Assembly (NCBI GenBank): GCA_965116865.1
Contig: OZ220727.1
Coordinates: 1,156,798-1,220,797, forward strand
Source of the DNA: Acidimicrobiales bacterium
GTDB lineage: Bacteria > Actinomycetota > Acidimicrobiia > Acidimicrobiales > Aldehydirespiratoraceae
Length of the DNA: 64,000 nt
Direction of reading: 5' to 3'
Shown here: in pieces, positions 2,602 through 63,450 of the stretch
Layout of the letters: every line of letters starts with the position of its first letter
How positions within the stretch are numbered: position 1 is the stretch's first letter
The notes under the pieces: generated by a model
The model's database searches: none
Seen by the model: the letters and a program-made list of their open reading frames with translations, nothing else
What the model was told of the DNA's origin: nothing
Program-made: the position numbers and the translations under genes

Positions 2602-2707
2602 CCGTCCGAGTATCGACGATCGGCCCGCACCCGGCAGCGACCGCTGCCCCGAACCCGGCAATGACCGCGAACACCGCCCGAGTATCGACGATCGGCCCAC
2701 GCCCGGC
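2602..2707. repeat. X-Y-X junction repeat, period 72 bp
   Basis: The segment ccg(t/c)ccgagtatcgacgatcggccc.c.cccggc occurs at 2602-2635 and 2674-2707, between tRNA-Arg and tRNA-His. Confidence 0.85.
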
Positions 2708-2753
2708 TTCCGGCGGCTGCGGTACACTGTGCATCGCCCGCTTCGGCGGTCGT

Positions 2754-2828
2754 GGTGGCCGTAGCTCAGTCGGTTAGAGCGCCGGGTTGTGGTCCCGGAG
2801 GTCGGGGGTTCGACTCCCCTCGGTCACC
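2754..2828 (+). tRNA. tRNA-His (anticodon GTG) with encoded G-1
   Basis: Acceptor GTGGCCG/CGGTCAC, with G-1 (2754) opposite C73. D-arm GCTC-AGTCGGTTA-GAGC, anticodon loop TTGTGGT, T-arm GGGGG-TTCGACT-CCCCT. Confidence 0.9.
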
Positions 2829-3026
2829 CGCCCCCTCCCCTGTGCGGAGTCGTCGGTGCCGCCGCGGTCGAAGTCGACGGGTCCCGCCGTGGTCGGGAGA
2901 TGGGCCTTGGGAAGCGTCGCGGCTGCGGCCGGGCGACGCTGCAACCATCGGCAGCGCATGGGCCGACAACACCGCACCTACCGAGCCACGCGACTGGAGT
3001 ATCCGGGCTAGCCTGGAAGCTTGCAA

Positions 3027-3100
3027 GCGCCTCTAGCTCAATCAGGCAGAGCAACGGACTCTTAATCCGCAGGTTCTGGGTTCGAGTCCCAGGGGGCGTA
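3027..3100 (+). tRNA. tRNA-Lys (anticodon CTT)
   Basis: Acceptor GCGCCTC/GGGGCGT, with G1-T72 and T6-G67 wobbles. D-arm GCTC-AATCAGGCA-GAGC, anticodon loop CTCTTAA, T-arm CTGGG-TTCGAGT-CCCAG. Confidence 0.8.
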
Positions 3101-3233
3101 CTTACGCAAATGCAGGGACCATCGCAGGCAGGGGAAGCCGTCGGCACCAGGCTAGGCTGTAAGCGCCGGTCGGGCTCCGCCCGGTGGTGCAGGTCTGGAT
3201 GGACCTCGTGCAGGCGCGAAGGGTGACGCCGAC

Positions 3234-4130
3234 ATGGACCGCTACGCGATATTCGTAGACGCCGAGTTCCTCTACCGAGAGGGCGGCGTGCTGTGCTGCA
3301 ACAGCCCGGACCGGCAAGAGATCCTCCTCTACGCCCTAGGCGCCAACGACTTCCTCGTCGGTCTCGCGACTGAGGTCTGCGATCTCCGGCCGCTTCGCAC
3401 CTATTGGTACGACACCTCGAGCGACGGGGCGCCGACCCCGGCCCAGCAGATGGTGGCGACGCTTCCCGACATGAAGCTGCGACTCCAGACCGGCGCCGGC
3501 CAGGACTCGCAATCGTCGCTGGGCGCGGCGATCCGGCGCGACCTGTCCACGCTGGCCCGCGAGCGGGCCATCTGCGACGCCTTCCTGCTGACGGACGACG
3601 AGGATCTGCTCGACTGCGTCCTCGAGGTCCAGGACCAGGGACTGCGGGTGACCCTGATCGACATCGCGTCGCATGGGGAGAGCGGGGAGGGGCCGGCCAG
3701 ACTGGCCAACGAATCGGACGAGGTCATCAAATTGACCAAGGACGATCTGTCGAGGTTCATCAGACGCCGACGCACTCCCGACGACGCTTCTGCCGACACC
3801 TACGACCCGGTCGACTCGGTCGCCGCAGCAGCGGCAGCCTTCGCCGAGAACTGGCTCTGCCAGGCCAGCGACGACGAGTTCTACGCCATGCTCGGCCATC
3901 GCCCCCGCATACCCGAATCGCTGGACGGCGACCTGCTCTACGCTGTCGAGAACGTGATCGGTGGAAGCCTGCGAGGCCAGGACCGCCTCAGGATCGCTGT
4001 GCGCCAGGCCTTCTGGAACAGGATCGAACAGGAGATCGAAGGACTGGCCCCTGAACCGGTGCGGTCTGCGGCACGGGAGGCGGGACCGCCGAACCGCACA
4101 CGGATGAATCAGTCCGCGGGACCGCGGTAG
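3234..4130 (+). CDS. NYN (LabA/DUF88-like, PIN-fold) domain protein with uncharacterised C-terminal half
   Basis: N-terminus MDRYAIFVDAEFL and the later segment AFLLTDDEDLLDCVLEVQDQGLRVTLI match the acidic-residue pattern of NYN ribonuclease-like domains. 298-aa ORF. Confidence 0.65.
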   Translation: MDRYAIFVDAEFLYREGGVLCCNSPDRQEILLYALGANDFLVGLATEVCDLRPLRTYWYDTSSDGAPTPAQQMVATLPDMKLRLQTGAGQDSQSSLGAAIRRDLSTLARERAICDAFLLTDDEDLLDCVLEVQDQGLRVTLIDIASHGESGEGPARLANESDEVIKLTKDDLSRFIRRRRTPDDASADTYDPVDSVAAAAAAFAENWLCQASDDEFYAMLGHRPRIPESLDGDLLYAVENVIGGSLRGQDRLRIAVRQAFWNRIEQEIEGLAPEPVRSAAREAGPPNRTRMNQSAGPR

Positions 4131-4163: not shown

Positions 4164-5123
4164 TCAGCCGTCGGCCGCCGGAGCAGGTGCCGGCCCGCGC
4201 CGCGCTCCGAGAGCACGCAGCAACGCCCTCCGCCCAAGTGGCGGCATCTCCGCCGCCTGACCGGGCCCGCGCCGCGCTCCGAGAGCACGCAGCAACGTCT
4301 GCACCGTGAGCACGGCCAAGAACACGACGACGGTGGCGAGGGCCATGGTGGCTCCGGCTGCGGTGTCGTAGTGATAGCTGGCCAGCAGGCCGACCACCAC
4401 GGAGCCGATCCCGACCGCGGCTGCGACGACCATGATGCGCGGCACCCGCCGCACGAGCAGCACGGCAGTGGCCGGAGGAGCGATGAGGAAGGCGAACACC
4501 AGCAGGTTCCCCACGGCCTCGAACGATGCGATGATCGAGACGGCCAGCAGCACCAGCAGCACACCGTGGGCGAGACGGGGACGGAGGCCGAGGACCTGGG
4601 CCTGGGCGTGGTCGAACGTCATGACCAGGAACGCCCGATAGAAAACGACGACCCCGCCCACCGAGAGGACCGCCGCGACAGCCTGGCGGCGGAGGTCGCC
4701 CGCGTCCACTCCGGTGACGGACCCGAACAGGAAGCGGTTCAGGTCCCCGACGTAAGCTCCCGACGAACTGGACATGATGGCCACGGCTAGGGCCAGGAAA
4801 CCGACGAACAGCACCCCGATGGACGTGTCCTCCGGCAGCGGTGAGCAGCTGCGGATCATGTTGATGCCGCACACCATGGCGATGGCCGCCACGAAGGCGC
4901 CGATGGTGGTGTCGACCCCGATGATGAACGCCAGCGCGATCCCGGGAAGCACGCCGTGGGCCAGCGCGTCCCCTAGGAAGCTCATGCCCCGCAGCACTAC
5001 CCATGTGCCCACGACCGACGTGGTGAGGACCGCGAGCAGGCCCGCATAGAGAGCCCGGCGCATGAAGATGTTGGATGTGAACGGGTCGACCCACCACGAC
5101 ATGGGGTCGGTCAGGAACTCCAC
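4164..5123 (-). CDS. znuB: metal (zinc-type) ABC transporter permease, ABC-3 family
   Basis: 319-aa polytopic ORF typical of ZnuB/MntB/TroC permeases, directly downstream of the binding-protein gene. The C-terminus is extended in frame by the 72-bp repeat (LLRALGARRGP appears twice). Confidence 0.8.
   Translation of the reverse strand: MEFLTDPMSWWVDPFTSNIFMRRALYAGLLAVLTTSVVGTWVVLRGMSFLGDALAHGVLPGIALAFIIGVDTTIGAFVAAIAMVCGINMIRSCSPLPEDTSIGVLFVGFLALAVAIMSSSSGAYVGDLNRFLFGSVTGVDAGDLRRQAVAAVLSVGGVVVFYRAFLVMTFDHAQAQVLGLRPRLAHGVLLVLLAVSIIASFEAVGNLLVFAFLIAPPATAVLLVRRVPRIMVVAAAVGIGSVVVGLLASYHYDTAAGATMALATVVVFLAVLTVQTLLRALGARRGPGQAAEMPPLGRRALLRALGARRGPAPAPAADG
4190..4297. repeat. X-Y-X junction repeat, period 72 bp, inside the 3' end of znuB
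   Basis: The segment ggcccgcgccgcgctccgagagcacgcagcaacg occurs at 4192-4225 and 4264-4297. Confidence 0.9.
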
Positions 5124-5180: not shown

Positions 5181-6332
5181 TCAGCCGAGAGCGTCGACAA
5201 TGAGGTCGGCGTTGGTACGCACGAAGTCGACGTAGGTCTCGGCGCCGCTGCCGGCGGGACCGAGGCTGCCGGTGTAGAGCGTGACCACGTCGACGTCGCC
5301 GACCCGGTCGGCCAGCGCCTCGACGTCGTCGACGGAGTGCAGGGTCTCGGCGAAGATGGCCTTGATCCCCTCGTGCTCGATGATCTCGGCCAGCTCCTCG
5401 AGCCCGGCGGGGCTGGCCTGCGCCATGCTCGCCGGCGTCGGGATGACCGTGCCGATGAGCTCGAACCCGTAGCGGTCGGCGAAGTACCCGAGCGCCTCGT
5501 GGTTGGTGACCAGCTTGCGGCTCTCGGCGGGGAGTCGCTCGACCTTGGCGGCGACCTCGGCGTCCACCGCCTCCAGCTCGGCCAGGTAGCTGTCCAGGCA
5601 GGCTTCGATCGCGGCGGAGTCGAGACCGACCTCGCTCGTCAGCACCCGGGCGAGGCTCGACAGCGCACCCGACACCCGCTGAGGATCGAACCACACGTGG
5701 GGATCGCCTCCGCTGCCGTGGCCCTCTTCCTCGTGGCCCTCTTCTTCTTCCTCGTGGCCCTCTTCTTCCTCGTGGCCCTCTTCTTCCTCGTGGCCCTCTT
5801 CTTCCTCGTGACCCTCTTCTTCCTCGTGACCCTCTTCTTCCTCGTGTCCTTCGTCTTCTCCACCCTCGCCGTGGTGGTGAGCGCCCTCGAACGAGAACGG
5901 GATGGTCTCCATCCCGTCTGCGAACTCGAACACCGGCGTGCCCGACTCTGCGACTGCTTCGAGCGTGTCTTCGAGGGCCTCCTCCAGCTCCAGGCCGTTG
6001 GCCACCACCAGCGCGGCGTTCTCCATGAGGGCCCGGTCCTGAAGGGAGGGCTCGTAGCTGTGGGGATCGCCGCCGACTGGGATGATCGTCTCGATGTCGG
6101 CCAGCCCGCCGCAGGCCACGTTCGAGACGATGTCGGCCCAGATGCCCGTGGTTACCAGGATTGCCGGAGTCTCAGCGGCAGCCTCGGGCTCGGCCTCTGA
6201 GTCAGTGCCGTCCCCGCTGCACGCTGCGGCTGTCAGGGCCATGACGGCAACAGCCGCGGACATGGCCGTCAGTATCGATGGTCGGGCGCGGGCGGCTGCA
6301 ATGGCGGTGCCGGGGCTTGCTGAACGGATCAC
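5181..6332 (-). CDS. znuA: metal ABC transporter substrate-binding lipoprotein (ZnuA/TroA family) with His/Glu-rich loop
   Basis: Cluster-9 binding-protein-like sequence with lipobox LTAAAC. Loop HHHGEGGEDEGHEEEEGHEEEEGH... The preferred start is GTG 6332, with AAGGAG (6340-6345) 7 nt upstream. The track ORF extends to TTG 6368. Confidence 0.8.
   Translation of the reverse strand: MIRSASPGTAIAAARARPSILTAMSAAVAVMALTAAACSGDGTDSEAEPEAAAETPAILVTTGIWADIVSNVACGGLADIETIIPVGGDPHSYEPSLQDRALMENAALVVANGLELEEALEDTLEAVAESGTPVFEFADGMETIPFSFEGAHHHGEGGEDEGHEEEEGHEEEEGHEEEEGHEEEEGHEEEEGHEEEEEGHEEEGHGSGGDPHVWFDPQRVSGALSSLARVLTSEVGLDSAAIEACLDSYLAELEAVDAEVAAKVERLPAESRKLVTNHEALGYFADRYGFELIGTVIPTPASMAQASPAGLEELAEIIEHEGIKAIFAETLHSVDDVEALADRVGDVDVVTLYTGSLGPAGSGAETYVDFVRTNADLIVDALG
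5717..5852. repeat. coding 18-bp repeat encoding (GHEEEE)n
   Basis: About 7-8 tandem copies of ctcttcttcctcgtggcc-like units on the plus strand. Confidence 0.85.
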
Positions 6333-6398: not shown

Positions 6399-6410
6399 AC
6401 AACGACCTGG

Positions 6411-9922: not shown

Positions 9923-10264
9923 CCTGGAACGGACCTCAGAGCAAACGCAGACAGGCGAGAGTCCCAGCCCCATTCGCCGGTCACGCGCACCCTGCCCGCT
10001 GGAACGGACCTCAGAGCAAACGCAGACAGGCGAGAGTCCCAGCCCCATTCGCCGGTCACGCGCACCCTGCCCGCTGGAACGGACCTCAGAGCAAACGCAG
10101 ACAGGCGAGAGTCCCAGCCCCATTCGCCGGTCACGCGCACCCTGCCCGCTGGAACGGACCTCAGAGCAAACGCAGACAGGCGAGAGTCCCAGCCCCATTC
10201 GCCGGTCACGCGCACCCTGCCCGCTGGAACGGACCTCAGAGCAAACGCAGACAGGCGAGAGTCC
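9923..10264. repeat. 75-bp tandem array, 4.5 copies
   Basis: The segment ggaacggacctcagagc starts at 9926, 10001, 10076, 10151 and 10226. The last unit runs directly into dispersed-repeat copy 2. Confidence 0.95.
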
Positions 10265-10378
10265 GTGGTGTCGCAGCGGTGTCATTCCCGCTCTTGTTAG
10301 CTGCGACCTGAGGGCCGCTCGGGCCACGGCCTCGCCTGTTGGTGGCGGATTCGCTCGCCTATTTGCTCGGCCTCTCAG
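10244..10378 (+). repeat. structured dispersed repeat (MITE/REP-like), copy 2
   Basis: The core gtgtcgcagcggtgtcattcccgctcttgttagctgcgacctgagggccgctcgggccacggcctcgcc and the right end cgcctatttgctcggcctctcag. Confidence 0.75.
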
Positions 10379-21209: not shown

Positions 21210-21368
21210 GGCCCCACCCGCACGGCGGCCCCGCGGCCGCGGAATGGTCCCGCAACTGCCAATGGGATCATGAGACGCACCCGCACGGCGGCCCCGCGGC
21301 CGCGGAATGGTCCCGCAACTGCCAATGGGATCATGAGACGCACCCGCACGGCGGCCCCGCGGCCGCAT
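21201..21368. repeat. 63-bp tandem array (2.4 copies) between the ATPase stop and the permease start
   Basis: Units start with acccgcacgg at 21216, 21279 and 21342. Each unit ends gggatcatgagacgc, mimicking the permease start region ggaaggatcatg. Confidence 0.9.
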
Positions 21369-27566: not shown

Positions 27567-27673
27567 GTCGCCGGGGTCTTCGGCGGACTGATTCGAGTTC
27601 GTGCGCGCGGCGCGCCGAAAATCGTCCAGCCCCTCGAGTCGCCGGGGTCTTCGGCGGACTGATTCGAGTTCGT
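27567..27673. repeat. X-Y-X junction repeat, period 71 bp
   Basis: The segment gtcgccggggtcttcggcggactgattcgagttcgt occurs at 27567-27602 and 27638-27673, between the Fic start and tRNA-Pro. Confidence 0.9.
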
Positions 27674-27853: not shown

Positions 27854-29560
27854 ATGAGCCCACTTCACGAAGCCCAGCGCAGGGCCGACGCGATCAAGCG
27901 ATATCTAGCGCCCGAGTCGTTGGAAGACGCTCTGGACGTGCTCGCGACGCGCGGCCCCTCGGCACGGGCCATCGCCGGCGGCACCGACCTGCTGTTGGAA
28001 CTCAGCCGCGGCGCGCGGACCGGCATCGACACCCTCGTCGATCTGAGCGTGCTCGACGGGCTCGACACCATAACCGAGCACCGTGAGCGGGTCGAGCTGG
28101 GGCCCCTCGTCACCCACGCCGATGTCGTCGGGTACGAGAGGATGCCGTCGGTGGGACTGCCGCTCGCGCAGGCCTGCCTGGAAGTCGGAGGACCGCAGCT
28201 CCGCAACCGGGCCACGGTCGCCGGCAACATCGTCACAGCCAGTCCCGCCAACGACACTGTCTCCGCTCTGTACGCGCTCGGCGCCGACGTGACCGTCTCA
28301 TCAGCCGGAGGCGGCAACCGGACCATGCCGATCTCGGACTTCCTCACCGGTTTCCGCACCACCGCGCTGCAACCGGGCGAACTGGTGACCAGGATCGCCT
28401 TCGACGTCTTGGGAGGCCCCCGGCGGGGGATCTTCGTGAAGCTCGGGCTGAGGAGGGCGCAGGCCATCTCGGTGGTCCACGCCGCCGCGGTCGTCACCGA
28501 AGACAGCGACGGCGCCGTGGCCGACCTGGTGGTGGCTCTCGGAAGCGTCGGCCCGACCATCGAACTGGTGGACGCAGCCGTCGGCATAGCCAGGGGCCGG
28601 CGCCTCGCCGCCGCCGCCGCCGACGTAGCGGCCGCGTCACGGGCTGCGGTCACACCCATCGACGACCTGCGCGCCACAGCCGAGTACCGCAGCCGCACGG
28701 TCGAGGCAGTGGTGGAACGAGCGCTGCGCTCGCTGGCGGCCGGCACCGAGGCCGCCACCTGGCCGTATCGGCCTCCGCGCCTCGCGGCGGCCGCCCGCCC
28801 CGCAGCAGCGCCCGCGCCAGCGACCGACGGCGCCTCGCGGCGGGAGGACGCCGACGACAGCGCCGCCACCCGCGACGTGCTCACGGGCAGCGCCGTCGCC
28901 ACGGGCTCGCAGCGGGAGATCACCGACGGCAACACCATCACGGCGACCCACACCCCCGGCTGGCAGCTCCACCGGCCAGACGTTCGGGAGATCACCGACG
29001 GCAACACCATCACGGCGACGGTCAACGGCGTCGAGCGCCGCGCTGCCAACGCCGCGGGGCGCACGCTGCTCGACTGGCTGCGACTCGACCTCGGACTGAC
29101 CGGCACCAAGGAGGGCTGCGCCGAGGGCGAGTGCGGCGCCTGCACCGTCCATCTCGACGGCCGAGCCGTGCTGGCGTGTCTGGTGCCGGCCGCCCGGGCC
29201 GCCGCCGCCAGCGTCACCACGGTCGAGGGTCTGGCCTCGCCGGACGGAGCGCTGCATCCGGTCCAGCAGGCCCTGGCGGACTGCGGGGGCGTCCAGTGCG
29301 GCTTCTGCACCCCCGGGTTCGTGATGAGCGCCGCCATGCTGGCCGAGGAGGAGCCCCACCCGAGCCGGGCACAGGTGGAGCACGGTCTGGCCGGGAACCT
29401 GTGCCGCTGCACGGGGTACTACTCGATCATCAACTCCCTCACCGACAGCGACGCGTCCCCCGCCGCCGACACCACACCGCGAACCGGCAGCCACAAGCCC
29501 TCGAACGGGACTCCCCCGCCGCCGACTCCCACCGACGCGTCCGGAGCGGCCGGGCTGTGA
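27854..29560 (+). CDS. fused FAD-binding (CoxM/XdhB-like) and [2Fe-2S] (CoxS/XdhC-small-like) subunit of a molybdenum hydroxylase
   Basis: The N-terminal half has AIAGGTDLLLEL and other FAD-binding features. The C-terminal part has GCAEGECGACTV, QCGFCTPG and NLCRCTGY. An Ala/Pro-rich linker contains a 72-bp duplication. Confidence 0.85.
   Translation: MSPLHEAQRRADAIKRYLAPESLEDALDVLATRGPSARAIAGGTDLLLELSRGARTGIDTLVDLSVLDGLDTITEHRERVELGPLVTHADVVGYERMPSVGLPLAQACLEVGGPQLRNRATVAGNIVTASPANDTVSALYALGADVTVSSAGGGNRTMPISDFLTGFRTTALQPGELVTRIAFDVLGGPRRGIFVKLGLRRAQAISVVHAAAVVTEDSDGAVADLVVALGSVGPTIELVDAAVGIARGRRLAAAAADVAAASRAAVTPIDDLRATAEYRSRTVEAVVERALRSLAAGTEAATWPYRPPRLAAAARPAAAPAPATDGASRREDADDSAATRDVLTGSAVATGSQREITDGNTITATHTPGWQLHRPDVREITDGNTITATVNGVERRAANAAGRTLLDWLRLDLGLTGTKEGCAEGECGACTVHLDGRAVLACLVPAARAAAASVTTVEGLASPDGALHPVQQALADCGGVQCGFCTPGFVMSAAMLAEEEPHPSRAQVEHGLAGNLCRCTGYYSIINSLTDSDASPAADTTPRTGSHKPSNGTPPPPTPTDASGAAGL
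28914..29019. repeat. X-Y-X repeat, period 72 bp, in frame inside the CoxM-CoxS linker
   Basis: The segment gggagatcaccgacggcaacaccatcacggcgac occurs at 28914-28947 and 28986-29019. The protein reads REITDGNTITAT twice. Confidence 0.9.
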
Positions 29561-34188: not shown

Positions 34189-34595
34189 CCCCCACAGCCC
34201 CCATCCTCACGCATTTCTCGATACTCCTCCACGCGAAAACTCCCACCAACCACACGATCCCGCGGATCCAGCGCCGCCGTCGCCGTGACGCTCACGGCCC
34301 GCCACCGCCGCCGCAGCCGACACCTGCGCAGCCGACAGCGCCGCCATCGCCGACCTCGACACCACCAACATCTCACGCAACTCCGAACACGACGCCGCGC
34401 CCGCGCCCACCAGCTCCAGCATCTCGGAGGCAGCGGCCTCGGCCCGACGAGCGGCTTCGATCAACATGCACACAGCATCCCACAGGGGTATGACATCCAC
34501 CCCCCACAGCCCCCATCCTCACGCATTTCTCGATACTCCTCCACGCGGAACTCCCACCAACCACGCGATCCCGCGGATCTAGCGCCGCCGTCGGT
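33957..34595. repeat. 311/312-bp tandem duplication covering the 5' end and upstream region of the HNH gene
   Basis: The segment cagcgccgccgtcgccgtgacgctcacgg starts at 33957 and 34269, with a third partial start at 34580. By eye the copies are about 97% identical. Confidence 0.9.
34207..34500 (-). pseudogene. duplicated N-terminal fragment of the DUF222/HNH gene
   Basis: MDVIPLWDAVCMLIEAARRAEAAASEMLELVGAGAASCSELREMLVVSRSAMAALSAAQVSAAAAVAGRERHGDGG is nearly identical to residues 1-76 of the 32155..34188 product. It then diverges and stops. Confidence 0.8.
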
Positions 34596-34662
34596 TGTCG
34601 TGGTCATCTTCGACGACCTCGTCGAGGCCATCCATGCGGTTCCGCGGATCTAGCGCCGCCGC
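34571..34662. repeat. X-Y-X junction repeat, period 71 bp
   Basis: The segment ccgcggatctagcgccgccg occurs at 34571 and 34642. Confidence 0.75.
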
Positions 34663-35742: not shown

Positions 35743-35850
35743 GCGCGCCGCGCGGCGCTCCGCGGTCAAGGCCCGCACCCGAATCGCTGCTGCCTGCCTC
35801 GCTCACGGCTCACGCGCGCCGCGCGGCGCTCCGCGGTCAAGGCCCGCACC
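35743..35850. repeat. X-Y-X repeat, period 71 bp, disrupting the IS110 transposase frame
   Basis: The segment gcgcgccgcgcggcgctccgcggtcaaggcccgcacc occurs at 35743-35779 and 35814-35850. Confidence 0.9.
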
Positions 35851-36218
35851 GCCGCCGTCAACCAGATCAAAGCGCTGTTGGTGACCGCCCCCGAGCAGAT
35901 CGCCGCCCCGCTGCGGGGCCTTCGCACCGCCGCTTTGGTCGGTGCCTGTGCTCGACTGCGGCCCGATACCGCCGGCGGCGAGGCTGCCGGCGCGGCGAAG
36001 AGGACCATGCGCGGCCTGGCGCGACGGCACCGGGCGCTCAGCGGCGAGATAGACGAGCTCGACGCTGAGATCGCCCGCCTGTGCATGCAGGCGAATCCCG
36101 CTTTGATGGCCGCGCCCGGCGTCGGCGCGCAGACTGCCGCCGCGCTGCTCGTCGCCGCTGGCGACAACCCGCGGCGCCTGCACAGCGAGGCGTCCCTCGC
36201 GGCGCTCTGCGGAGCCGG

Positions 36219-36306
36219 CCCCATCGAGGCGTCCTCGGGGCGCACAATGGCTGTCCTCGTGGGCCGCGACAGCCAGTCGCCCCATCGAGGCGTCCTCGGG
36301 GCGCAC
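36219..36306. repeat. X-Y-X repeat, period 61 bp, disrupting the IS110 transposase frame
   Basis: The segment ccccatcgaggcgtcctcggggcgcac occurs at 36219-36245 and 36280-36306. Confidence 0.9.
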
Positions 36307-36765: not shown

Positions 36766-37026
36766 TACCGGCCGAGGCTAGTCAGGGGACCTCCGTCGAC
36801 AGCGTCGTGGTGTTCCCATACGGTGCCGAGTTCGAGGCACCGGCCGAAGCTGGTCAGAGGACCTCCGTCGACAGCGTCGTGGTGTTCCCATACGGTGCCG
36901 AGTTCGAGGCACCGGCCGAAGCTGGTCAGAGGACCTCCGTCGACAGCGTCGTGGTGTTCCCATACGGTGCCGAGTTCGAGGCACCGGCCGAAGCTGGTCA
37001 GGGGACCTCCGTCGACAGCGTCGTGC
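36766..37026. repeat. 72-bp tandem array (3.6 copies)
   Basis: The segment gacctccgtcgacagcgtcgtg starts at 36788, 36860, 36932 and 37004. Confidence 0.95.
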
Positions 37027-38392: not shown

Positions 38393-38467
38393 GTGCGGCC
38401 CCCTTGTTCTCTCCGGCACGGAACCGATCTGGGCATCGTCGCGCACCGACCGGATCCGTCTCTTCTA

Positions 38468-38819
38468 GCCGCGGCCGACGCACAACTGGGCGATCCCCCG
38501 CCGACCCAGCGTCGAGGCACCGACCACCCTCGGAATCCTCCTCAAGCCGCGGCCGACACACAACTGGGCGATCCCCCGCCGACCCAGCGTCGAGGCACCG
38601 ACCACCCTCGGAATCCTCCTCAAGCCGCGGCCGACACACAACTGGGCGATCCCCCGCCGACCCAGCGTCGAGGCACCGACCACCCTCGGAATCCTCCTCA
38701 AGCCGCGGCCGACACACAACTGGGCGATCCCCCGCCGACCCAGCGTCGAGGCACCGACCACCCTCGGAATCCTCCTCAAGCCGCGGCCGACACACAACTG
38801 GGCGATCCCCCGCCGACCC
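38468..38819. repeat. 78-bp tandem array (4.5 copies) in a divergent intergenic region
   Basis: The segment gccgcggccgac starts at 38468, 38546, 38624, 38702 and 38780. Confidence 0.95.
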
Positions 38820-39741: not shown

Positions 39742-40400
39742 GCCGCGGCGGCGAACTGCACCGCCAGAGGCTCGACACCGGAGCCTGCGACGTCGGCGAG
39801 CCGTCCGGGACCGACTATGCGGCCTTGACAACGCACCGCCAGAGGCTCACACCGGAGCCTGCGACGTCATCTGACAGCGTCGACGAGCAGCACCTCAGGA
39901 GTTCCCTCGCCGTCTGGCTCGTGCGCGTCCGCGACGGCGCCGACCCCGACCCGGTCGCCGCCACACGCTTCGCGGACGTGTCCGCCGACCATCCCCACGC
40001 CGCGTTCATAGAACGCTTCGCTCAACTCGAAGTCACCGAAGGCTGCCGCGACGGCACCCGCTACTGCCCCGACGACACCGTCACCCGTGCCCAGATGGCG
40101 AGCTTCCTGCACCGTGCCCGGACCCTGAAACTCCTCGAGCTCGACGACGCGCCCGCGCTGGAGGTGCTCCGAGCCGACCCGCACCTGGTGGGCACCTACC
40201 CGCCGCCGGTGGTCATAATGGCAGCGCCTCCCCGCGGTGTTCGACGCCGTGAGACGGGCCGTGGACGACGACCGCTCCCCGGGGCGGTTCCTCATCACCG
40301 GCTCAACCTCGCCCAAGCGGCCTCCGACCACCACTCTTCACGGCTGAGCCGATGCACGGCTTCGGCCACGACATCGAGCATGGTCGTGCCCCGCTGCTGA
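39738..40400 (+). pseudogene. composite remnant: SLH-like domain fragment followed by a fragment of a DUF4143-type AAA ATPase
   Basis: FADVSADHPHAAFIERFAQLEVTEGCRDGTRYCPDDTVTRAQMASFLHRA is SLH-like. In another frame at about 40240-40350, AVFDAVRRAVDDDRSPGRFLITGSTSP parallels residues of the 41708..43000 ATPase (GRPGQFILTGSAVP). Confidence 0.35.
39759..39868. repeat. X-Y-X repeat, period about 75 bp
   Basis: The segment caccgccagaggctcgacaccggagcctgcgacgtc occurs at 39759. The second copy at 39834 has a 1-nt deletion. Confidence 0.85.
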
Positions 40401-40640: not shown

Positions 40641-40641
40641 T

Positions 40642-43932: not shown

Positions 43933-44004
43933 CAAGACATCGTAGCACCTTCTTTGAATGATGCCTTGACGCTCCGCCTCGATCGCAGCAGGCCCTCGAT
44001 GCTC

Positions 44005-44550
44005 GGAAGACCCCCGCGTGGGCGGCGCCTCAGACGGTCCACCTCCTCGCAGACCCGGCGCTTGGGGAAGACCCCCGCGTGGGCGGCGCCTCACCCCCGG
44101 ATCCGTCGCAGCGCCTCTGTCGCGTTCATCGGCAAAGCGGTCCGCACCCGCGTGGGCGGCCCTTCACCCCCGGATCCGTCGCAGCGCCTCTGTCGCGTTC
44201 ATCGGCAAAGCGGTCCGCACCCGCGTGGGCGGCCCTTCACCCCCGGATCCGTCGCAGCGCCTCTGTCGCGTTCATCGGCAAAGCGGTCCGCACCCGCGTG
44301 GGCGGCCCTTCACCCCCGGATCCGTCGCAGCGCCTCTGTCGCGTTCATCGGCAAAGCGGTCCGCACCCGCGTGGGCGGCCCTTCACCCCCGGATCCGTCG
44401 CAGCGCCTCTGTCGCGTTCATCGGCAAAGCGGTCCGCACCCGCGTGGGCGGCGCCTCACTCCCGGATCCGTCGCAGCGCCTCTGTCGCGTTCATCGGCAA
44501 AGCGGTCCGTACCCGCGTGGGCGGCCCTTCACCCCCGGATCCGTCGCAGC
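44005..44550. repeat. tandem array, 8 X copies (first interval 61, then 75, then 72 bp x5), seeded on the HIT gene stop
   Basis: The segment acccccgcgtgggcgg / acccgcgtgggcgg starts at 44010, 44071, 44146, 44218, 44290, 44362, 44434 and 44506. The unit contains ccttcacccccggatccgtcgcagc, which is the last 6 codons plus the TGA of the HIT gene. Confidence 0.95.
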
Positions 44551-47124: not shown

Positions 47125-47188
47125 CGCCTGCGAGGCTACCGCTGCCCCTGAGGGCGCGGCTCCGCTCGAACGGCGGTCCACGGCGTCC

Positions 47189-47464
47189 GAGCCGCTCCAA
47201 GGGGGCCGAGCCGCCCCAAGGAGGTCTCGTGCGGACGACTCCCTGCAGCCGCCGACGCCGGAGCCTCACCGTGCGCATCGCCCGCAACCGGAGAGGTCTC
47301 GTGCGGACGACTCCCTGCAGCCGCCGACGCCGAGATCTGGCAGCGGCGGCGCTGGTGCCCCAAGGAGGTCCCGTGCGGACGACTCCCTGCAGCCGCCGAC
47401 GCCGAGAGCTGGCAGCGGCGGCGCTGGTGCCCCAAGGAGGTCTCGTGCGGACGACTCCCTGCAG
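47189..47464. repeat. repeat-spacer-like array, period 72 bp (X 40 bp, Y 32 bp), in the thrS/fabI divergent region
   Basis: X (gaggtctcgtgcggacgactccctgcagccgccgacgccg) occurs at 47221, 47293 and 47365, with a partial copy at 47437. Y1 at 47261-47292 differs from Y2 and Y3 (47333, 47405), which differ from each other by 1 nt. Confidence 0.9.
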
Positions 47465-47582
47465 TGCTGTCCGGGGCTGATCCGTGGCCGGCGTGCTCCC
47501 TGATCGTCGCGACGCCCGAGAAGACCCCCGCGCCCCGGGCCGCGTCGTGGAACGGCACGTTCTCAAGGTACCGTTGGCGGCT

Positions 47583-48350: not shown

Positions 48351-48353
48351 GCA

Positions 48354-48595: not shown

Positions 48596-49654
48596 TCACG
48601 GGCCGCTGTCGTCGGTCTCGTCGAAGATGTCGCCCACCAGGCCCTCGAGGATGTCCTCCAGGGTGACCACGCCCAGCATGCGCCCGGTGTCGCTTCGCAC
48701 CAGAGCCATGTGAACTCGCGACCGCCGCATGTCGAGCAGGAGGTCGCGACCGGCCATATCAGGGCCCACCACCCGCATGCGGCGCACCAACTCCAACGGC
48801 AGCGGATCGTCGCAGGCCTCCTCCGGCATGCGGATCAGGTCCTTGGCGTGGACGAACCCCAGCACGTCGTCGGGTTCCGACCCCCACATCGGGATCCGGG
48901 TGTGTCCGGTGGCGGCCACCACATCCTCGAGTCGGGCCGCGGACGCCCCCCGGGGCACGGACACCAGCCGGTCGGCGGGCACCATCACCGATCCGACCGA
49001 CTGGGCACGGAACTCCAGCGCGCCCGACAGCAACTCGTGCTCGGTGGGCTCGATCACGCCCTCCTCGCGGGCGCCCGCGAGCAGCGTCCGGAACTCGTTG
49101 ATGGTGAGCGCGGTGTTGATCTCGTCCACCGGATTGATGCCCATCAGGCGCACGATGCGGTTCCCCACGAAGTTGAGGGACGCGATGACCGGTCTGAACA
49201 CTGCACCGTAGATGCGCATGGCCGGCGCCAGCAGCCGTGCCGACGCCTCCGGCTCGGCAATGGCCATGTTCTTGGGGACCATCTCGCCCACCACCACATG
49301 CAGCGTCGTCACCACGAACAGCGCCACCGCGAAGGAGATCGTGTGCAGGACGCCGGACGGAACCTCCACGACCCTCTCGATGACCGGCTCGATGAGGTGG
49401 GCGATGGCCGGCTCGGCCACATAGCCCAGCACCAGCGAGGCCATGGTGATGCCGAACTGGGCTCCAGCGAGCTGGGTCTGCAGGTCGCGCACCGCTGCCA
49501 GGGCGATGCCGCTGCGCCTGTCGCCGTCGGACGCGGCCGCCTCCAAGCGAACAGCACGGGCCGCGACCAGCGCGAACTCGGCCGCCACGAAAAAGGCGTT
49601 GGCCCCGAGCATCACCACCGCCACAACCAAGGCTACGACCGTCGCCGTGCTCAC
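48596..49654 (-). CDS. CNNM/CorC/TlyC family protein (DUF21 + CBS pair)
   Basis: GTG 49654 gives VSTATVVALVVAVVMLGANAFFVAAEFALV (DUF21), followed by CBS-pair-like regions. The track ORF start at 49849 lies inside the repeat. Confidence 0.8.
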   Translation of the reverse strand: MSTATVVALVVAVVMLGANAFFVAAEFALVAARAVRLEAAASDGDRRSGIALAAVRDLQTQLAGAQFGITMASLVLGYVAEPAIAHLIEPVIERVVEVPSGVLHTISFAVALFVVTTLHVVVGEMVPKNMAIAEPEASARLLAPAMRIYGAVFRPVIASLNFVGNRIVRLMGINPVDEINTALTINEFRTLLAGAREEGVIEPTEHELLSGALEFRAQSVGSVMVPADRLVSVPRGASAARLEDVVAATGHTRIPMWGSEPDDVLGFVHAKDLIRMPEEACDDPLPLELVRRMRVVGPDMAGRDLLLDMRRSRVHMALVRSDTGRMLGVVTLEDILEGLVGDIFDETDDSGP

Positions 49655-49876
49655 CGCGACACCCCCGAACCGACCAAGCACCGACCCCGCCGAAAAAAAC
49701 AGCCCACAACCGTCGCCGCGCTCACCGCGACACCCCCGAACCGACCAAGCACCGACCCCGCCGAAAAAACAGCCCACGACCGTCGCCGTGCTCACCGCGA
49801 CACCCCCGAACCGACCAAGCACCGACCCCGCCGAAAAAACAGCCCGCAACCGTCGCCGTGCTCACCGCGACACCCC
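49636..49876. repeat. 70/71-bp tandem array (3.4 copies) seeded on a GTGA stop/start junction
   Basis: The segment g(t/c)gctcaccgcgacaccccc occurs at 49647, 49718, 49788 and 49858. The A7 tract at 49693-49699 contrasts with A6 tracts in the other units. Confidence 0.95.
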
Positions 49877-51235
49877 CGGTGCTGCCGGGCCGCACCCGTC
49901 CCTTCGCCCCAGCGCGGGCGCGGCTACGGATACGACAGGCGCCGCCACCCGGACAGCGGCGATCCTCAAACGGTCGACAGCCACCACCTCGAGGCGCCAG
50001 CCGTCCACGGTGACGACCTCGCCGGGCACCGGTATGTGGCCCAGCCTGTCCAGCACCAGCCCGGCCAGCGTCTCGTAGCCGCCTTCGGGCATGGCGAAGC
50101 CGGTAGCGTCGAACACCTCGTCGGTGTGCAGCGACGCGGACAGCACCGTCGAGCCCCGGGACTCGGACCGGGTGCGCTCAGGGGTGGACGAGTCGTGCTC
50201 GTCGTCGATCTCACCGACGATCTCCTCAAGCACGTCCTCGAGGGTGATGATCCCCGCCGTGCCGCCGTGCTCGTCGACCACCACGGCCAGCAGACCCGCG
50301 CCGGCGCGCAGGTCGTGCAGGATGTCGTTGAGATCGCGGGACTCGGGCACGGCAAGCACCGGCTGCATCAACTGCGACACCGGCGTGGAATGCCGTTGCG
50401 GCCCGGGCACGGCGAACAGCGATTTCACATGGACCACGCCGGCCACGTTGTCGAGATGGCCCGCCGTGACCGGAAACCGGGAATGGCCGGTGCCGACGGC
50501 CAGTTCGGCGAGGTAAGCCACCGAGGCGTCGGCCTCGATGGCGACCACCTCCACCCTGGGCACCATGGCGTCGTCGGCCTGCTTGTCGGCCAGGCGGATC
50601 GACCGGGTGAGCAGCCACACCTCGTCCTCGTCGAGCATCCCCCCCTGCCCCGATGAAACGAAGAGGTGTTCGAGTTCGTCGCGATCAGGCACCGTGTCTA
50701 TCTCCTCGCGCGGCTCCATGCCGAGTCGGCGCACCATCCAGTTGGCCGCGCCGTTGAGGAAAGCCACCACAGGCCGGGCCAGCACGCCGTACACGGTGGT
50801 CGGAACGGCCACCGCCACCGCTGTCCCGAAGGGCTTCGTGGTGGCCACCGCCTTGGGGACGAGCTCGCCCATCATCATCTGCACGATCGTGGCCAGCATC
50901 AGCGCGACCGCGACGGACACGCCCGAGGGCGTGTTGCCCCCGAACAGCGCCTCGACTCCGGGCGCAATCATCGGCGCCAGGGCCGGTTCGACCATGAAGC
51001 CGAGAAGCAACGACGAGACCGTGATGCCGATCTGCGCGCCCGACAGGTGAAACGACAGCCGGGCCACCAAGCGCTGGACCATCCGGGCCCGGCGGTCTCC
51101 GGCCCCTGCCCGTTCGTCCACTCGGGTGCGGTCCACCGCCACCAGCGCGAACTCCATGGCGACGAAGAAGGCGTTGGCTGCCATCAGCGCGAGAGCGGCC
51201 AAGAGCCACAGCGCGGTCTCTATCGGTCCTCCCAA
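49862..51235 (-). CDS. CNNM/CorC/TlyC family protein (DUF21 + CBS pair + CorC_HlyC)
   Basis: N-terminus LLAALALMAANAFFVAMEFALVAVDR, then CBS-like segments and the C-terminal transporter-associated domain. 457 aa. Confidence 0.85.
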   Translation of the reverse strand: MGGPIETALWLLAALALMAANAFFVAMEFALVAVDRTRVDERAGAGDRRARMVQRLVARLSFHLSGAQIGITVSSLLLGFMVEPALAPMIAPGVEALFGGNTPSGVSVAVALMLATIVQMMMGELVPKAVATTKPFGTAVAVAVPTTVYGVLARPVVAFLNGAANWMVRRLGMEPREEIDTVPDRDELEHLFVSSGQGGMLDEDEVWLLTRSIRLADKQADDAMVPRVEVVAIEADASVAYLAELAVGTGHSRFPVTAGHLDNVAGVVHVKSLFAVPGPQRHSTPVSQLMQPVLAVPESRDLNDILHDLRAGAGLLAVVVDEHGGTAGIITLEDVLEEIVGEIDDEHDSSTPERTRSESRGSTVLSASLHTDEVFDATGFAMPEGGYETLAGLVLDRLGHIPVPGEVVTVDGWRLEVVAVDRLRIAAVRVAAPVVSVAAPALGRRDGCGPAAPGVSR

Positions 51236-52708: not shown

Positions 52709-53110
52709 TTGCATCTCGCTATTCTCAGTGCTAAGGTGGAGGATGTGCAGACGCTCTCATTCGCAGACCTGGCGCCCGTGCTCGCCGCCGTCCTCGGACC
52801 GATACTGCTGTTAGCGGTCACGATCATGCGCTACCAGCACGTCGACAGCACCAAGACCCGCGACCTCATCGACCGCAACCGCGAAGCCAGCGAACAAGCC
52901 CACAAAGAAACCCGCGACCTCATCGACCGCAACCGCGAAGCCAGCGAACAAGCCCACAAAGAAACCCGCGACCTCATCGACAAGAACTATCGGGAGATGG
53001 TCAGCGGCCTCGGACGCGCCGATGCGCGACTGAGCCGCATAGAGGGCACCCTGGGTATTCTGTCGGCGACTGCTCACAACGTGGACGACAGCGGCACCGA
53101 GGCAGCCTGA
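52709..53110 (+). CDS. small membrane-anchored protein with 18-aa tandem repeat
   Basis: One TM segment, LAPVLAAVLGPILLLAVTIM. TRDLIDRNREASEQAHKE occurs 2.3 times, encoded by a 54-bp repeat at 52856-52981. AAGGTGGAGG lies upstream of the alternative GTG starts at 52736 and 52745. Confidence 0.55.
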   Translation: MHLAILSAKVEDVQTLSFADLAPVLAAVLGPILLLAVTIMRYQHVDSTKTRDLIDRNREASEQAHKETRDLIDRNREASEQAHKETRDLIDKNYREMVSGLGRADARLSRIEGTLGILSATAHNVDDSGTEAA

Positions 53111-53147: not shown

Positions 53148-53325
53148 GTCGTTCCGGAGGACCGCGACCTGACGGCACCGCACCCCCGGGCTCCGGAACC
53201 TCACCGGCATGTTCCTCGCAGACCGTGACCTGACGGCACCGCACCCCCGGGCTCCGGACAAGCCCGCAGCCTCATGAGGCAAGTCGTTCTGGAGGACCGC
53301 GACCTGACAGCGCCGCGCCGGTGCC
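53148..53325. repeat. three-copy X-Y repeat (intervals 61 and 74 bp) between convergent genes
   Basis: The segment gaccg(c/t)gacctgac(g/a)gc(a/g)ccgc occurs around 53161, 53222 and 53296. Confidence 0.75.
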
Positions 53326-55380: not shown

Positions 55381-55492
55381 GCCCGCGCAACAGAGACAAC
55401 GCCTGTGGTTGTCGCACCTTGAAGATCTCGTCGGCGGTCATGCGCCGCACGGAGCCCGCGCAACATAGACAACGCCTGTGGTTGTCGCACCT
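55381..55492. repeat. X-Y-X junction repeat, period 73 bp, seeded on the stop of the 55491..56912 gene
   Basis: The segment gcccgcgcaaca(g/t)agacaacgcctgtggttgtcgcacct occurs at 55381-55419 and 55454-55492. Each X carries the hairpin gacaac-gcctgtg-gttgtc. Confidence 0.9.
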
Positions 55493-57103: not shown

Positions 57104-57194
57104 GTCCGGTCAGACCGCGTCGGGGGCGATGGTCCGACCGCATCGCCGTTGCCGCCGCCGGCGCCGTCCGGTCAGACCGCGTCGGGGGCGATGG
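57104..57194. repeat. X-Y-X junction repeat, period 62 bp, seeded on the amidase stop
   Basis: The segment gtccggtcagaccgcgtcgggggcgatgg occurs at 57104-57132 and 57166-57194. The second copy contains the amidase TGA (57172-57174). Confidence 0.9.
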
Positions 57195-60677: not shown

Positions 60678-60708
60678 GCCGCGAGTGTTGCACGCCCAGC
60701 CACGGCTG

Positions 60709-60885
60709 GCAGAACAAAGCACGCGCGCGCACGCCATGCACGACCGGTGCGCGTGTTTGGACCGAACACGCGCACCGGTGGCAGAACAAAGCGCGCGCAC
60801 GCCATGCACGACCCCGGTGGCCCGGCCCCGGTGGACGGCCCGCAGCCGCGCAGAACAAAGCACGCGCGCGCACGCCATGCACGAC
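60709..60885. repeat. repeat-spacer-like array (X 36/32/36 bp, two unrelated Y of 36 and 37 bp) in the murF/ddl divergent region
   Basis: X (gcagaacaaagc(ac)gcgcgc(gc)acgccatgcacgac) occurs at 60709, 60781 and 60850. Y1 (60745-60780) is a perfect 14-bp-stem hairpin. Y2 (60813-60849) is unrelated to Y1. Confidence 0.9.
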
Positions 60886-60935
60886 GCTGCCATTTCGGCG
60901 CCGGCGCTAGCGTCGTCGGCGTGGAGGACCGCAGG

Positions 60936-62048: not shown

Positions 62049-62139
62049 CAGGCCGATCGGCGCGCCGTGCATGGCGAGCGGCCCGTGATGCCGGTGGATT
62101 CAGGCTCCATCAGAAGTCGGCCGCGCTCGGCAGCAGGCT

Positions 62140-62403
62140 TCATCGAGACCTGCAGACGTCGCGGCGATGGCCGACGCGGATCACATGGATCACCAGGCGC
62201 TCGCCGATGACCTCATACAAGATCCGATAGTCGCCGACGCTCACCCGATACACGGACTCCTCACCCGCGAGAGCGACACAGTTCGGAGGCCTCGGCTCGT
62301 CAGCCAGCAGGTCTATCGCGGCTCGAACACGGCGCTGTTCGTGACGGGGCGCGGTTGGAGTTGGTGTTACCGCGTTCATTCGTCGCAGCATCGCCGGGGT
62401 CAC
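62140..62403 (-). CDS. relE: RelE/ParE-family toxin, N-terminally atypical and without a cognate antitoxin gene
   Basis: C-terminal YRVSVGDYRILYEVIGERLVIHVIRVGHRRDV is the canonical RelE/ParE core. The N-terminal strand and helix are replaced by repeat-derived sequence. Confidence 0.6.
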   Translation of the reverse strand: MTPAMLRRMNAVTPTPTAPRHEQRRVRAAIDLLADEPRPPNCVALAGEESVYRVSVGDYRILYEVIGERLVIHVIRVGHRRDVCRSR

Positions 62404-62459
62404 GGCCTCGACGTCCAGTCAATAGTTGGAGTTGGTGCTACCGCGTTCATTCGTCACAG
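62354..62459. repeat. X-Y-X junction repeat, period 71 bp, at the relE 5' end
   Basis: The segment gttggagttggtg(t/c)taccgcgttcattcgtc(g/a)cag occurs at 62354-62388 and 62425-62459. X contains an ATGA stop/start junction on the minus strand. Confidence 0.9.
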
Positions 62460-62520
62460 TGTCTTGAGACCGGCTGAACTGGAGAGATTTCGTATGATGT
62501 TCCACCCTCGCCGAGGCCGC

Positions 62521-63279
62521 TCACCCAGCCTGACCCTCAGCCGCTCCGGGTTGGATGTCGAGGAGGGGGCCGAGCTCCCGGAGGCGGGCGCGTCGTATGC
62601 GGTAGTCGGGCACGGCCTGGGCGACCACAGCCCAGTATTCGGGCGTGTGGCCGCGGACGCGCAGGTGTGCGAGCTCGTGGGCGATCACGTAGTCGAGGAG
62701 GGCGGGCGGGGCCATGACGGCACGCCAGTTGAAGCGCAGCGTGCCGTCCGGGGCGCAGCTCGCCCAGCGGCGGCGCTGACCGCGGACGAGGACCGCTTTC
62801 GGCTGCGCGCCGAGGAGGCTCGCGATGCGCTCCACGCGCGGCGGGAGCTTCAGCGCGGCGCGGTCGCGGTACCACGCCTCGAATGCGGCCCGCACCTTCT
62901 CGAGCCGTTCCTCGCCTCGCAGAAAGCGGGGGACGCCGACGTCGAACTCCCAGTGGTGGAACCCGACCTCGACCCTGGCGCCGTCGATGGGATGCACGGT
63001 GAGGCGCACCGACCGGCCGAGATAGGGCAGGGACTCGCCGCTGACGAACCGGCGGGGCGGTGCGCACGCCGTGGCCGCGCCGTCGTGCCGGACGATCCAG
63101 CCGGCACGGCGACGCACAGTCTCCTCGACTTGCTCCGCAGGCGTGTCGACAGGCGCCGCCACCCTGACGACACCGGGCGCATCGACGGTGACCTCGATCG
63201 TCTTGCGCCGTCTCGGGCTGCGGACGACCTGGTACTCGATCCGGGCTTCGCCGAAGACGACCTCCCCGCGCTCTGTCAC
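62521..63279 (-). CDS. DUF45/YgjP-like (M48-type) zinc metallopeptidase
   Basis: The HELAHL zinc motif lies within LDYVIAHELAHLRVRGH. The real start is GTG 63279 (VTERGEVVFGEARIEYQVVRS). This gene type is a common companion of type I R-M systems. Confidence 0.8.
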   Translation of the reverse strand: MTERGEVVFGEARIEYQVVRSPRRRKTIEVTVDAPGVVRVAAPVDTPAEQVEETVRRRAGWIVRHDGAATACAPPRRFVSGESLPYLGRSVRLTVHPIDGARVEVGFHHWEFDVGVPRFLRGEERLEKVRAAFEAWYRDRAALKLPPRVERIASLLGAQPKAVLVRGQRRRWASCAPDGTLRFNWRAVMAPPALLDYVIAHELAHLRVRGHTPEYWAVVAQAVPDYRIRRARLRELGPLLDIQPGAAEGQAG

Positions 63280-63450
63280 ACGAGCCTCTTGCGGGCCATC
63301 TCCATGACCTTCGAGCACCGCGACGACGACGCCGTACAGGCCCGCGTCACACGAGCCTCTTGCGGGCCATCTCCATGACCTTCGAGCACCGCGACGACGA
63401 CGCCGTACAGGCCCGCGTCACACGAGCCTCTTGCGGGCCATCTCCATGAC
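63275..63450. repeat. 71-bp tandem array (X-Y-X-Y-X) seeded on the hsdR stop / DUF45 start GTGA junction
   Basis: X (gtcacacgagcctcttgcgggccatctccatgac) occurs at 63275, 63346 and 63417. Y (cttcgagcaccgcgacgacgacgccgtacaggcccgc) occurs twice. Confidence 0.95.

Follow-up and report, generated by a model that had tools for sequence, protein, structure and literature searches.

How does a chromosome come to carry, at one locus after another, short tandem arrays that share their dimensions but not their sequence? The question is raised by a 64-kb stretch of an Acidimicrobiales genome (contig OZ220727.1, positions 1,156,798 to 1,220,797). In this whole stretch, hereafter the window, from whose start all array coordinates are counted, we found 22 locus-specific arrays with a common layout, together covering ~3.8 kb or ~6% of the sequence. 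Each begins and ends with the same segment, defined as X, and a second segment, Y, is found solely between the X copies, so that the arrays read X-Y-X or, when longer, (X-Y)n + X. The anatomy is demonstrated by two empty sites and two restored open reading frames (ORFs): X is native sequence that was duplicated, and Y was inserted between its copies. The feature is highly non-random, and it is unusual under either of the two mechanisms that deserve most consideration. The best explanation, to which we give an evenly balanced degree of confidence, is off-target integration of the Cas1-Cas2 type followed by expansion through slippage; its main rival is an undescribed pathway for inserting fragments.

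Dimensions and phase of the arrays

Tandem Repeats Finder, which needs roughly 1.8 copies and catches arrays with ~2 or more, made calls at 9924, 21203, 36767, 38460, 44074, 47215, 49638 and 63275. We complemented it with a period scan of our own (s[i] = s[i+p], at least 19/20 matches, p from 20 to 400), whose candidates were then printed in rows of one period. The first-pass annotation, made from the letters of the window, had listed at least 21 arrays with clustered periods, and all 21 loci were recovered within 1-3 bp of the starts given there; the total is 22 because 44005 and 44074 count as separate events. The 25 separable events have periods of 61 (three times), 62, 63, 70, 71 (five times), 72 (seven times), 73 (three times), 74, 75 (twice) and 78 bp, with none at 64-69 bp. 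If regions of coding repeats are set aside, the short-range direct repeats of the window almost all fall into the 61-63 or 70-78 bp period classes, the sole exceptions being a 45-bp dimer at 14903, a 98-bp unit in 2.07 copies at 48342 and a 54-bp unit in 2.39 copies at 52854. Two arrays needed reinterpretation. The one at 44005, initially read as periods of 61, 75 and then five times 72 bp, is indeed mixed, but it consists of a single 61-bp event followed by a separate 73-bp array of 6.5 copies (44074), with overlapping X segments; the one at 60709, read as 72/69, is composite, but its periods are 72/72, the middle X having lost 2 bp.

The commonest form, seen in 13 arrays, has ~1.5 copies. 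The multi-copy arrays contain 2.44, 2.48, 3.4, 3.5, 3.6, 4.55, 4.56 and 6.53 copies, and the fractional part, which is free of detection bias in such arrays, lies within 0.41-0.60 in all eight, a result with a chance of ~5e-6 under uniform phase. This confirms that the arrays consistently stop near half a unit, as had been noticed from the sequence. The units of different loci have no sequence in common, again as first described, since an all-against-all BLAST returned same-locus matches only. Some arrays carry single-nucleotide polymorphisms (SNPs) between copies, and a relaxed scan of the window revealed no decayed arrays with a period of 55-85 bp at 77% identity or more.

Duplicated targets and inserted fragments

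By its ThrS protein, the window belongs to the Acidimicrobiia. For comparison with the closest relatives we used seven loci around thrS, of 15-22 kb each, from five genomes with 89-92% ThrS identity. They comprise L050 (the metagenome-assembled genome, MAG, Acidimicrobiaceae SB0677_bin_3), L081 on a linear contig, L082 and L086 on circular contigs, and L083-L085 from NCBI MAGs. L050 is the best species-representative match, with 86-92% nucleotide identity over the syntenic parts. The comparison revealed empty sites for the arrays at 28913 and 49638, with X present once and Y lacking. The array at 28913 translates as REITDGNTITAT-HTPGWQLHRPDV-REITDGNTITAT-VNGVERR, where L050 has REVTDVWTITAT-INGVQR once, and its Y is missing from the other close relatives too. 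At the site of 49638, two CNNM genes overlap by 4 bp in the relatives, and the window has ~290 bp there instead. Emptied in silico, the 28913 and 49638 sites align without a break across X to L083 and L082.

A second line of evidence comes from an IS110 transposase gene whose coding sequence now lies in two different frames and contains the arrays at 35743 and 36218. Removal in silico of one period from each (71 bp and 61 bp, respectively) yields a single transposase ORF containing ...RSAVKARTAAVNQIKALL... and ...GPIEASSGRTVRHRLNRGGDR.... Upon this excision, the DEDD_Tnp_IS110 Pfam match grows from 15-143/155 to 15-151/155 and that of Transposase_20 from 3-50/87 to 3-64/87. The alignment of the restored ORF to the solved ISCro4 transposase (9t56) runs over both joints, and its match range to IS621 (8wt6) covers the second joint. 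Because of the empty sites, the ORF restorations and the 1.5 copies of the basic form, plain tandem duplication is ruled out. The earlier proposal that the arrays are scars of a staggered-cut integration, duplicating its target and inserting ~33-37 bp, is thus borne out by the two empty sites and the two IS110 excisions, and also by the tight lengths and the 3-periodicity of Y.

The length of Y has a median of 35 bp (interquartile range 34-37), and X measures either 28-29 or ~34-44 bp. Among sharp-edged events with identical X copies, the (X,Y) lengths of the short class are (28,33), (28,33) and (29,33); the long class comprises (36,35), (35,37), (37,34), (36,36), (34,37) and (41,34). A (30,41) combination was found twice.

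The GC content of Y (A 17%, C 40%, G 28%, T 14%) is 68%, compared with 69.5% in the window, and the 3-periodicity of GC in Y, 0.363, is close to that of random genomic fragments (0.392 ± 0.037) and was reached by 0/3000 shuffles of Y (0.234 ± 0.027). Searches for Y elsewhere in the window or in 82 fetched loci gave self matches only. Since the periodicity is of the coding type and the sequence is non-local, Y is a captured fragment of coding DNA, copied from a high-GC source, and not the product of untemplated synthesis. The inferred coding strand of Y is oriented randomly with respect to the chromosome (10 against 14, no bias), and the most likely source is the organism's own genome. Two inserts have features of their own. 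Y1 of the array at 60708 (60745-60779) is a perfect hairpin with a 15-bp stem (CGGTGCGCGTGTTTGGACCGAACACGCGCACCG), like a captured terminator or palindromic element. The Y of the array at 55381 (55420-55453) reads, on its minus strand, ...ATGACCGCCGACGAGATCTTC. This insert now contains the start of the longest ORF in the M23 peptidase gene and may have provided the gene with a new 5' end.

The surviving arrays are found between genes, at gene ends whose terminal codons are retained in X, in frame within tolerant protein tails, and in dead genes (Table 1). As X is duplicated, an insertion overlapping the end of a gene leaves one intact end: the last 7-10 codons and the stop are preserved in X at the HIT, amidase, hsdR-fragment and 36998 genes, and in the array at 49638 the beginning of the second CNNM gene is preserved likewise. 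Both arrays in live coding sequence, in the ZnuB tail and in a linker of the xanthine dehydrogenase (XDH) protein, have 72-bp periods and are in frame, whereas those in the dead IS110 gene have periods of 71 and 61 bp. The latter gene carries two arrays per ~1.1 kb, a density similar to that of intergenic DNA, so that gene boundaries are probably not targeted by the primary process. The distribution of the arrays is what selection would leave after near-random insertion.

Different Y segments between identical X copies were found at 60708, 47213 and 53149 only. The first two had already been pointed out in the first-pass annotation (47261 versus 47333, 60745 versus 60813), and the third is added here. 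The arrays at 47213 and 53149 are nested double events, and the 61-bp array at 44005 and the 73-bp array at 44074 partly occupy the same X. Independent events with the same edges imply some target preference; in the two-Y arrays the target edges are reused, as at a CRISPR repeat.

No arrays with periods of 61-78 bp are present in the seven closest-relative loci. Such repeats are almost nil in 80 Actinomycetota loci around thrS, 24 of them from Streptomyces. Together with the lack of decayed copies, their absence from the closest relatives indicates that the arrays are lineage-specific and young, the product of a recent burst confined to this lineage. A more distant relative, the Acidimicrobiales chromosome OZ220474.1, has 13 clusters of short-range direct repeats in 22 kb, with periods of 33-144 bp; its well-developed repeats are near integer copy number, a repeat richness of a different kind.

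Table 1. X-Y-X arrays of the window (lengths in bp)
Coordinates	Structure	Period (X/Y)	Location and remarks
2599..2707	X-Y-X	72 (37/35)	between tRNA-Arg and tRNA-His; a few mismatches between X copies
4190..4297	X-Y-X	72 (36/36)	in frame, znuB C-terminal tail: TLLRALGARRGP-GQAAEMPPLGRR-ALLRALGARRGP
9924..10264	(X-Y)x4 + X	75 (41/34)	upstream of 851-aa PPC-domain gene; copies 100% identical
21213..21366	(X-Y)x2 + X	63 (28/35)	5' end of BPD_transp_2 permease ORF
27567..27673	X-Y-X	71 (36/35)	between Fic gene and tRNA-Pro; sharp edges
28913..29019	X-Y-X	72 (35/37)	in frame, FAD/Fe-S subunit gene of xanthine-dehydrogenase-type enzyme; empty site in relatives
34561..34661	X-Y-X	71 (~30/41)	in 31800-44530 island; imperfect
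35743..35850	X-Y-X	71 (37/34)	inside IS110 transposase gene, frameshifting
36218..36306	X-Y-X	61 (28/33)	same IS110 transposase gene as 35743, frameshifting
36767..37025	(X-Y)x3 + X	72 (43/29)	last X carries stop and last codons of gene 36998-38446(-)
38464..38819	(X-Y)x4 + X	78 (44/34)	divergent intergenic region
39758..39869	X-Y-X	75/74 (~36/39)	end of MNT nucleotidyltransferase gene; 1-bp indel between X copies
44005..44093	X-Y-X	61 (28/33)	second X shares 20 bp with first X of array 44074
44074..44550	(X-Y)x6 + X	73 (39/34)	last X carries last 7 codons and stop of HIT gene
47213..47465	composite	72 (nested ~35/37 and 40/32 events)	thrS/fabI intergenic; four X copies, two different Y
49638..49879	(X-Y)x3 + X	70/71 (~30/41)	X covers start codon of second CNNM gene; empty site in relatives
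53149..53311	composite	74 (37/37) and nested 61 (strict 28/33, apparent 38/23)	convergent intergenic region
55381..55492	X-Y-X	73 (39/34)	junction of gene 55491-56912(-) and M23 peptidase gene
57104..57194	X-Y-X	62 (29/33)	X carries last 7 codons and stop of amidase gene
60708..60887	X-Y1-X-Y2-X	(36-37/Y1 35, Y2 37)	murF/ddl divergent region; three repeats, two different inserts
62354..62459	X-Y-X	71 (~35/36)	downstream of ddl; two X mismatches
63275..63450	(X-Y)x2 + X	71 (34/37)	X carries last 10 codons and stop of hsdR C-terminal fragment; copies 100% identical

A 12.7-kb island at 31800-44530, between the XDH large-subunit gene and the HIT gene, holds 8 of the 22 arrays. It is absent from the close relatives examined (by alignment of L050 and by gene order in L081-L083 and L086) and includes a DUF222-HNH gene, the truncated IS110, toxin-antitoxin genes of the MNT/HEPN-like, MazF and PIN kinds, and the gene of a DUF4143 ATPase. 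Its complex 21/54/57/90-bp coding repeats in the DUF222-HNH gene and an adjoining 312-bp x2 duplication (32754-33416 and 33957-34593) are ordinary tandem repeats. Between fabI and thrS, relatives have a tRNA-synt_1e (cysS/mshC-like) gene (L081 8773-9897, L082 8057-9142, L083 8788-9927); in the window this gene is lost and the composite array is in its place (47181-47484).

Other repeats of the window were also inspected. A ~55-bp dispersed element (TCCCGCTCTTGTTCGCTGCGCTCACGGGCCGCTCGGGCCACGGCCTCGCC) occurs at 1556-1605, 10285-10335, 13523-13583, 51776-51825 (-) and 14903-14990, and is found in L050 and L081 too. The separate 45-bp repeat reported earlier at the ppc 5' end is present at 14903-14990; it is a head-to-tail dimer of this element and lies outside the X-Y-X class, as does the 98-bp x2.07 integer-copy duplication between fabI and the CNNM gene (48342-48546). 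Repeats of 15 bp x15.5 in a Bmp/PnrA lipoprotein gene (24092-24320) and of 18 bp x7.3 in znuA (5725-5858) are likewise unlike the n+0.5 arrays. Finally, the 54-bp x2.39 repeat at 52854-52982, in frame in ORF 52709-53110, splits into an X of 21 and a Y of 33 bp and may be a short-X outlier of the class.

Possible mechanisms of insertion

In the mechanism that we propose, a captured fragment Y, usually of 33-37 bp, would be inserted at a pair of staggered nicks 28-29 or ~34-44 bp apart, and gap repair would duplicate the target X between the nicks to give X-Y-X. The CRISPR Cas1-Cas2 integrases, which catalyse such a reaction, would have put prespacers into non-CRISPR chromosomal sites by way of one or two adaptation modules, one type I-E-like with a 28/29+32/33 ruler and one with a 36/37-bp repeat ruler, possibly deregulated or without their former arrays. 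Selection would then purge hits in essential sequence, leaving survivors in intergenic DNA, gene termini, tolerant in-frame segments and dead genes. Some X-Y-X units would grow to n+0.5 copies via slippage or unequal exchange between X copies, and a few sites would be hit twice.

The 28/29+33 class equals the type I-E geometry, and the ~36+~36 class agrees with systems whose repeats measure 36/37 bp. Spacer integration in E. coli duplicates 28 bp and inserts 33. The mycobacterial type III-A array, for instance, typically combines 36-bp repeats with spacers of 35-41 bp. To our knowledge, Cas1-Cas2 spacer integration is the only reaction that inserts a tightly sized random fragment and duplicates a target of 28-37 bp. 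In an actinobacterial type I-E array, repeats of 29 bp and spacers of ~32 bp give a period of 61 (PMC13572051). Displaced mid-repeat anchor motifs lead to an aberrant duplication size (PMC4872114), and integration at sites without such motifs would explain the spread of X over 34-44 bp. When over-expressed, Cas1-Cas2 of E. coli is reported to insert spacers at genomic positions outside arrays, seeding 'neo-CRISPR' loci (Nivala 2018, as cited in PMC6698737, bioRxiv 10.1101/148544 and PMC11788318). The enzyme, the chemistry of the staggered nicks and the route of expansion are inferred. The first-pass annotation had likewise considered Cas1-Cas2 acting at ectopic sites; the geometry does fit, and it is the geometry that carries the attribution, no protospacer having been found.

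A number of results weigh against this explanation. The window contains no cas1, cas2, cas4 or reverse transcriptase gene and no canonical CRISPR array, the absence of cas genes and of a reverse transcriptase having been recognized from the outset, and an Rfam scan of it returned five tRNAs only and no CRISPR-DR match. A density of ~one scar per 3 kb has, as far as we know, no reported natural precedent. A search of Y against phage and plasmid databases, which the first-pass annotation had proposed, was run with a concatenate of 21 Y segments, and the best matches in INPHARED and PLSDB had E values of at least 0.3; seven Y segments written as wobble-degenerate patterns had no matches in IMG/VR, nor had two such patterns in the JGI metagenomes. 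The X edges show no consensus except a weak 5'-G (19/36), and X has no excess of hairpins or cruciforms (mean minimum free energy -5.1 versus -4.96 ± 0.54 in random segments). Eight arrays, seven uniform ones and the composite at 47213, repeat an identical Y, for which integration alone is insufficient; identical Y copies, impossible by integration, fit later slippage between X copies. X is 39-44 bp long in multi-copy arrays, compared with 34-37 bp in single-insert arrays. In the 70-78 bp class, moreover, the period (72.5 ± 1.85) is steadier than either X (± 3.7) or Y (± 2.8), the two being anticorrelated (r = -0.87), which is not predicted by two independent rulers. The steadier period could mean that there are more than two integrase classes, that closure is constrained to whole helical turns, or that a different mechanism measures the period. 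Helical-turn closure is a speculation prompted by the fact that 61.6/6 and 72.5/7 both give ~10.3 bp per turn.

Some of these points favour insertion by a non-CRISPR route, either an unknown integrase or break repair capturing ~34-bp fragments at staggered ends of 28-44 nt, which we consider rather unlikely and yet worth serious attention. What such a pathway measures is possibly not X and Y separately but the entire period, equal to 6 or 7 turns of the helix, as the steady period and the gap at 64-69 bp would suggest. The whole anatomy fits any staggered-cut mechanism that captures fragments, the window lacks cas genes and X lacks a repeat-like motif. On the other hand, the sharp 28/33 and ~36/36 classes coincide with real CRISPR types, and we know of no bacterial integrase or repair route that gives 28-44 bp duplications together with a tightly sized random insert. 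Casposases give target duplications of 14-15 bp, and insertion sequence elements of 2-14 bp. Borg tandem repeats pose the same puzzle, with partial repeats flanking a centre of unexplained origin and no enzyme assigned (PMC9879509).

The remaining readings are far less probable. That the arrays are selected functional elements, such as regulatory RNAs, phased repeats that bind proteins, or mini-CRISPR arrays in working order, and that their boundary position reflects function, seems to us very unlikely. Their location at gene starts and stops and the constant period near whole helical turns would suit this reading, and constant-size, variable-sequence repeats have been proposed as protein-binding elements or small RNAs in Firmicutes (PMC8161180). 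However, the arrays are missing at the same genes in all close relatives, are mutually unrelated in sequence and in two cases sit in, and destroy, a transposase gene; a bias towards boundaries is in any case expected from purifying selection on random insertions, with X preserving the gene end. Less probable still are ordinary variable-number tandem repeats (VNTRs) produced by slippage of native sequence, or a small mobile repeat family resembling the mycobacterial interspersed repetitive units (MIRUs) and spread to operon junctions, as the first-pass annotation had suggested. Arrays do occur at gene boundaries, some with 2.5-6.5 perfect copies, and the growth in copy number is very likely slippage, the multi-copy arrays having the longer X. 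For the primary event, nevertheless, we reject this reading: Y is lacking at empty sites, so the unit is partly non-native; the commonest form has 1.5 copies, whereas tandem duplication yields at least 2.0; and there is no consensus between loci. Two arrays also interrupt the IS110 gene and their removal restores it, and genuine duplications of integer copy number, which the window also contains (98 bp x2.07, 45 bp x1.96), look unlike the arrays. An artefact of long-read metagenome assembly or sequencing is the least credible reading of all. The source is probably a long-read MAG, as the related contigs of L081, L082 and L086 bear names in the style of hifiasm-meta (ctg…c / ctg…l), but assembly would not invent unique 34-bp inserts with codon periodicity, keep the frame in live genes, spare gene ends or produce SNPs between copies, and relatives assembled in the same way carry no arrays.

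We put near the midpoint the chance that the window records a recent genome-wide burst, in a wild lineage, of CRISPR-adaptation-type integration away from CRISPR sites, or, more radically, the activity of an undescribed inserter that measures periods of 6 or 7 helical turns. Should the window be representative, the 3.3-Mb genome would hold hundreds to ~a thousand events. Off-target spacer integration is reported to have been shown so far only with over-expressed E. coli Cas1-Cas2; its natural frequency and evolutionary cost are at stake. Were off-target integration the cause, the adaptation machinery would act as a mutator, seeding VNTR loci, extending proteins by new peptide segments, killing genes of mobile elements and creating proto-CRISPR arrays de novo; scars at ~6% of the sequence would show adaptation modules reshaping intergenic regions and proteins. 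It would also give a concrete origin for locus-specific VNTRs that are half native and half foreign, including the unexplained centre of Borg repeats, and the hundreds of off-target sites would serve as natural data in which to read the target rules of the integrase. If Cas1 is not involved, the arrays point to an unknown mechanism of DNA insertion.

Comparison with known repeat systems

The arrays work like the neo-CRISPR loci reported by Nivala, Shipman and Church (2018): in both, native DNA from outside CRISPR arrays, as long as a repeat, stands in duplicate around a spacer-length insert, which in the arrays is non-local. The 28-bp duplication with a 33-bp insert matches three sharp-edged events in the window, and a site that is hit more than once becomes a small array with different inserts. 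Unlike the arrays, the published events come from over-expressed E. coli Cas1-Cas2, natural cases being circumstantial, whereas ~22 events are fixed in 64 kb of a wild genome here; the arrays also show two size classes, with many units amplified to identical copies and no cas genes seen in the window.

Canonical CRISPR arrays resemble ours in having repeats of 28-37 bp and spacers of 33-37 bp, and the array at 60708 has three repeats and two different spacers. However, a canonical system has a single repeat shared across the genome and a series of different spacers in each array, whereas here the repeat changes from locus to locus and is ordinary genic or intergenic DNA. The insert is mostly single or present as several identical copies, neither a leader nor a cas neighbourhood accompanies the arrays, and Rfam gave no CRISPR-DR match.

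Mycobacterial MIRU/VNTR loci, too, lie at operon junctions, where their 50-100 bp units sometimes overlap stop and start codons, and vary in copy number. MIRUs have a family consensus, which the units described here lack, and slippage VNTRs consist of wholly ancestral units, whereas these are part native and part foreign, with systematic half-unit ends. In the constant-size, variable-sequence repeats of Firmicutes (Subirana and Messeguer, PMC8161180) many loci similarly share length and not sequence; those repeats measure 52 or 20-21 nt, have at least 4 copies and no reported X-Y-X anatomy, and differ in phylum and size.

The Borg tandem repeats (Schoelmerich et al. 2023, PMC9879509) differ in having A-rich units of many lengths, whereas the arrays of the window have periods of 61-63 or 70-78 bp, a composition equal to that of the genome and, as their commonest state, a single insert. 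In both systems, however, the repeats are pervasive, unique to their locus, near-perfect and absent from relatives, occur in genes in frame as well as between genes, and have partial repeats that flank a centre, which for Borgs is of unexplained origin. A CRISPR-integrase-like origin has been floated for the Borg repeats as well (PMC9879509). Of the systems compared, they are the closest natural parallel to the arrays described here.

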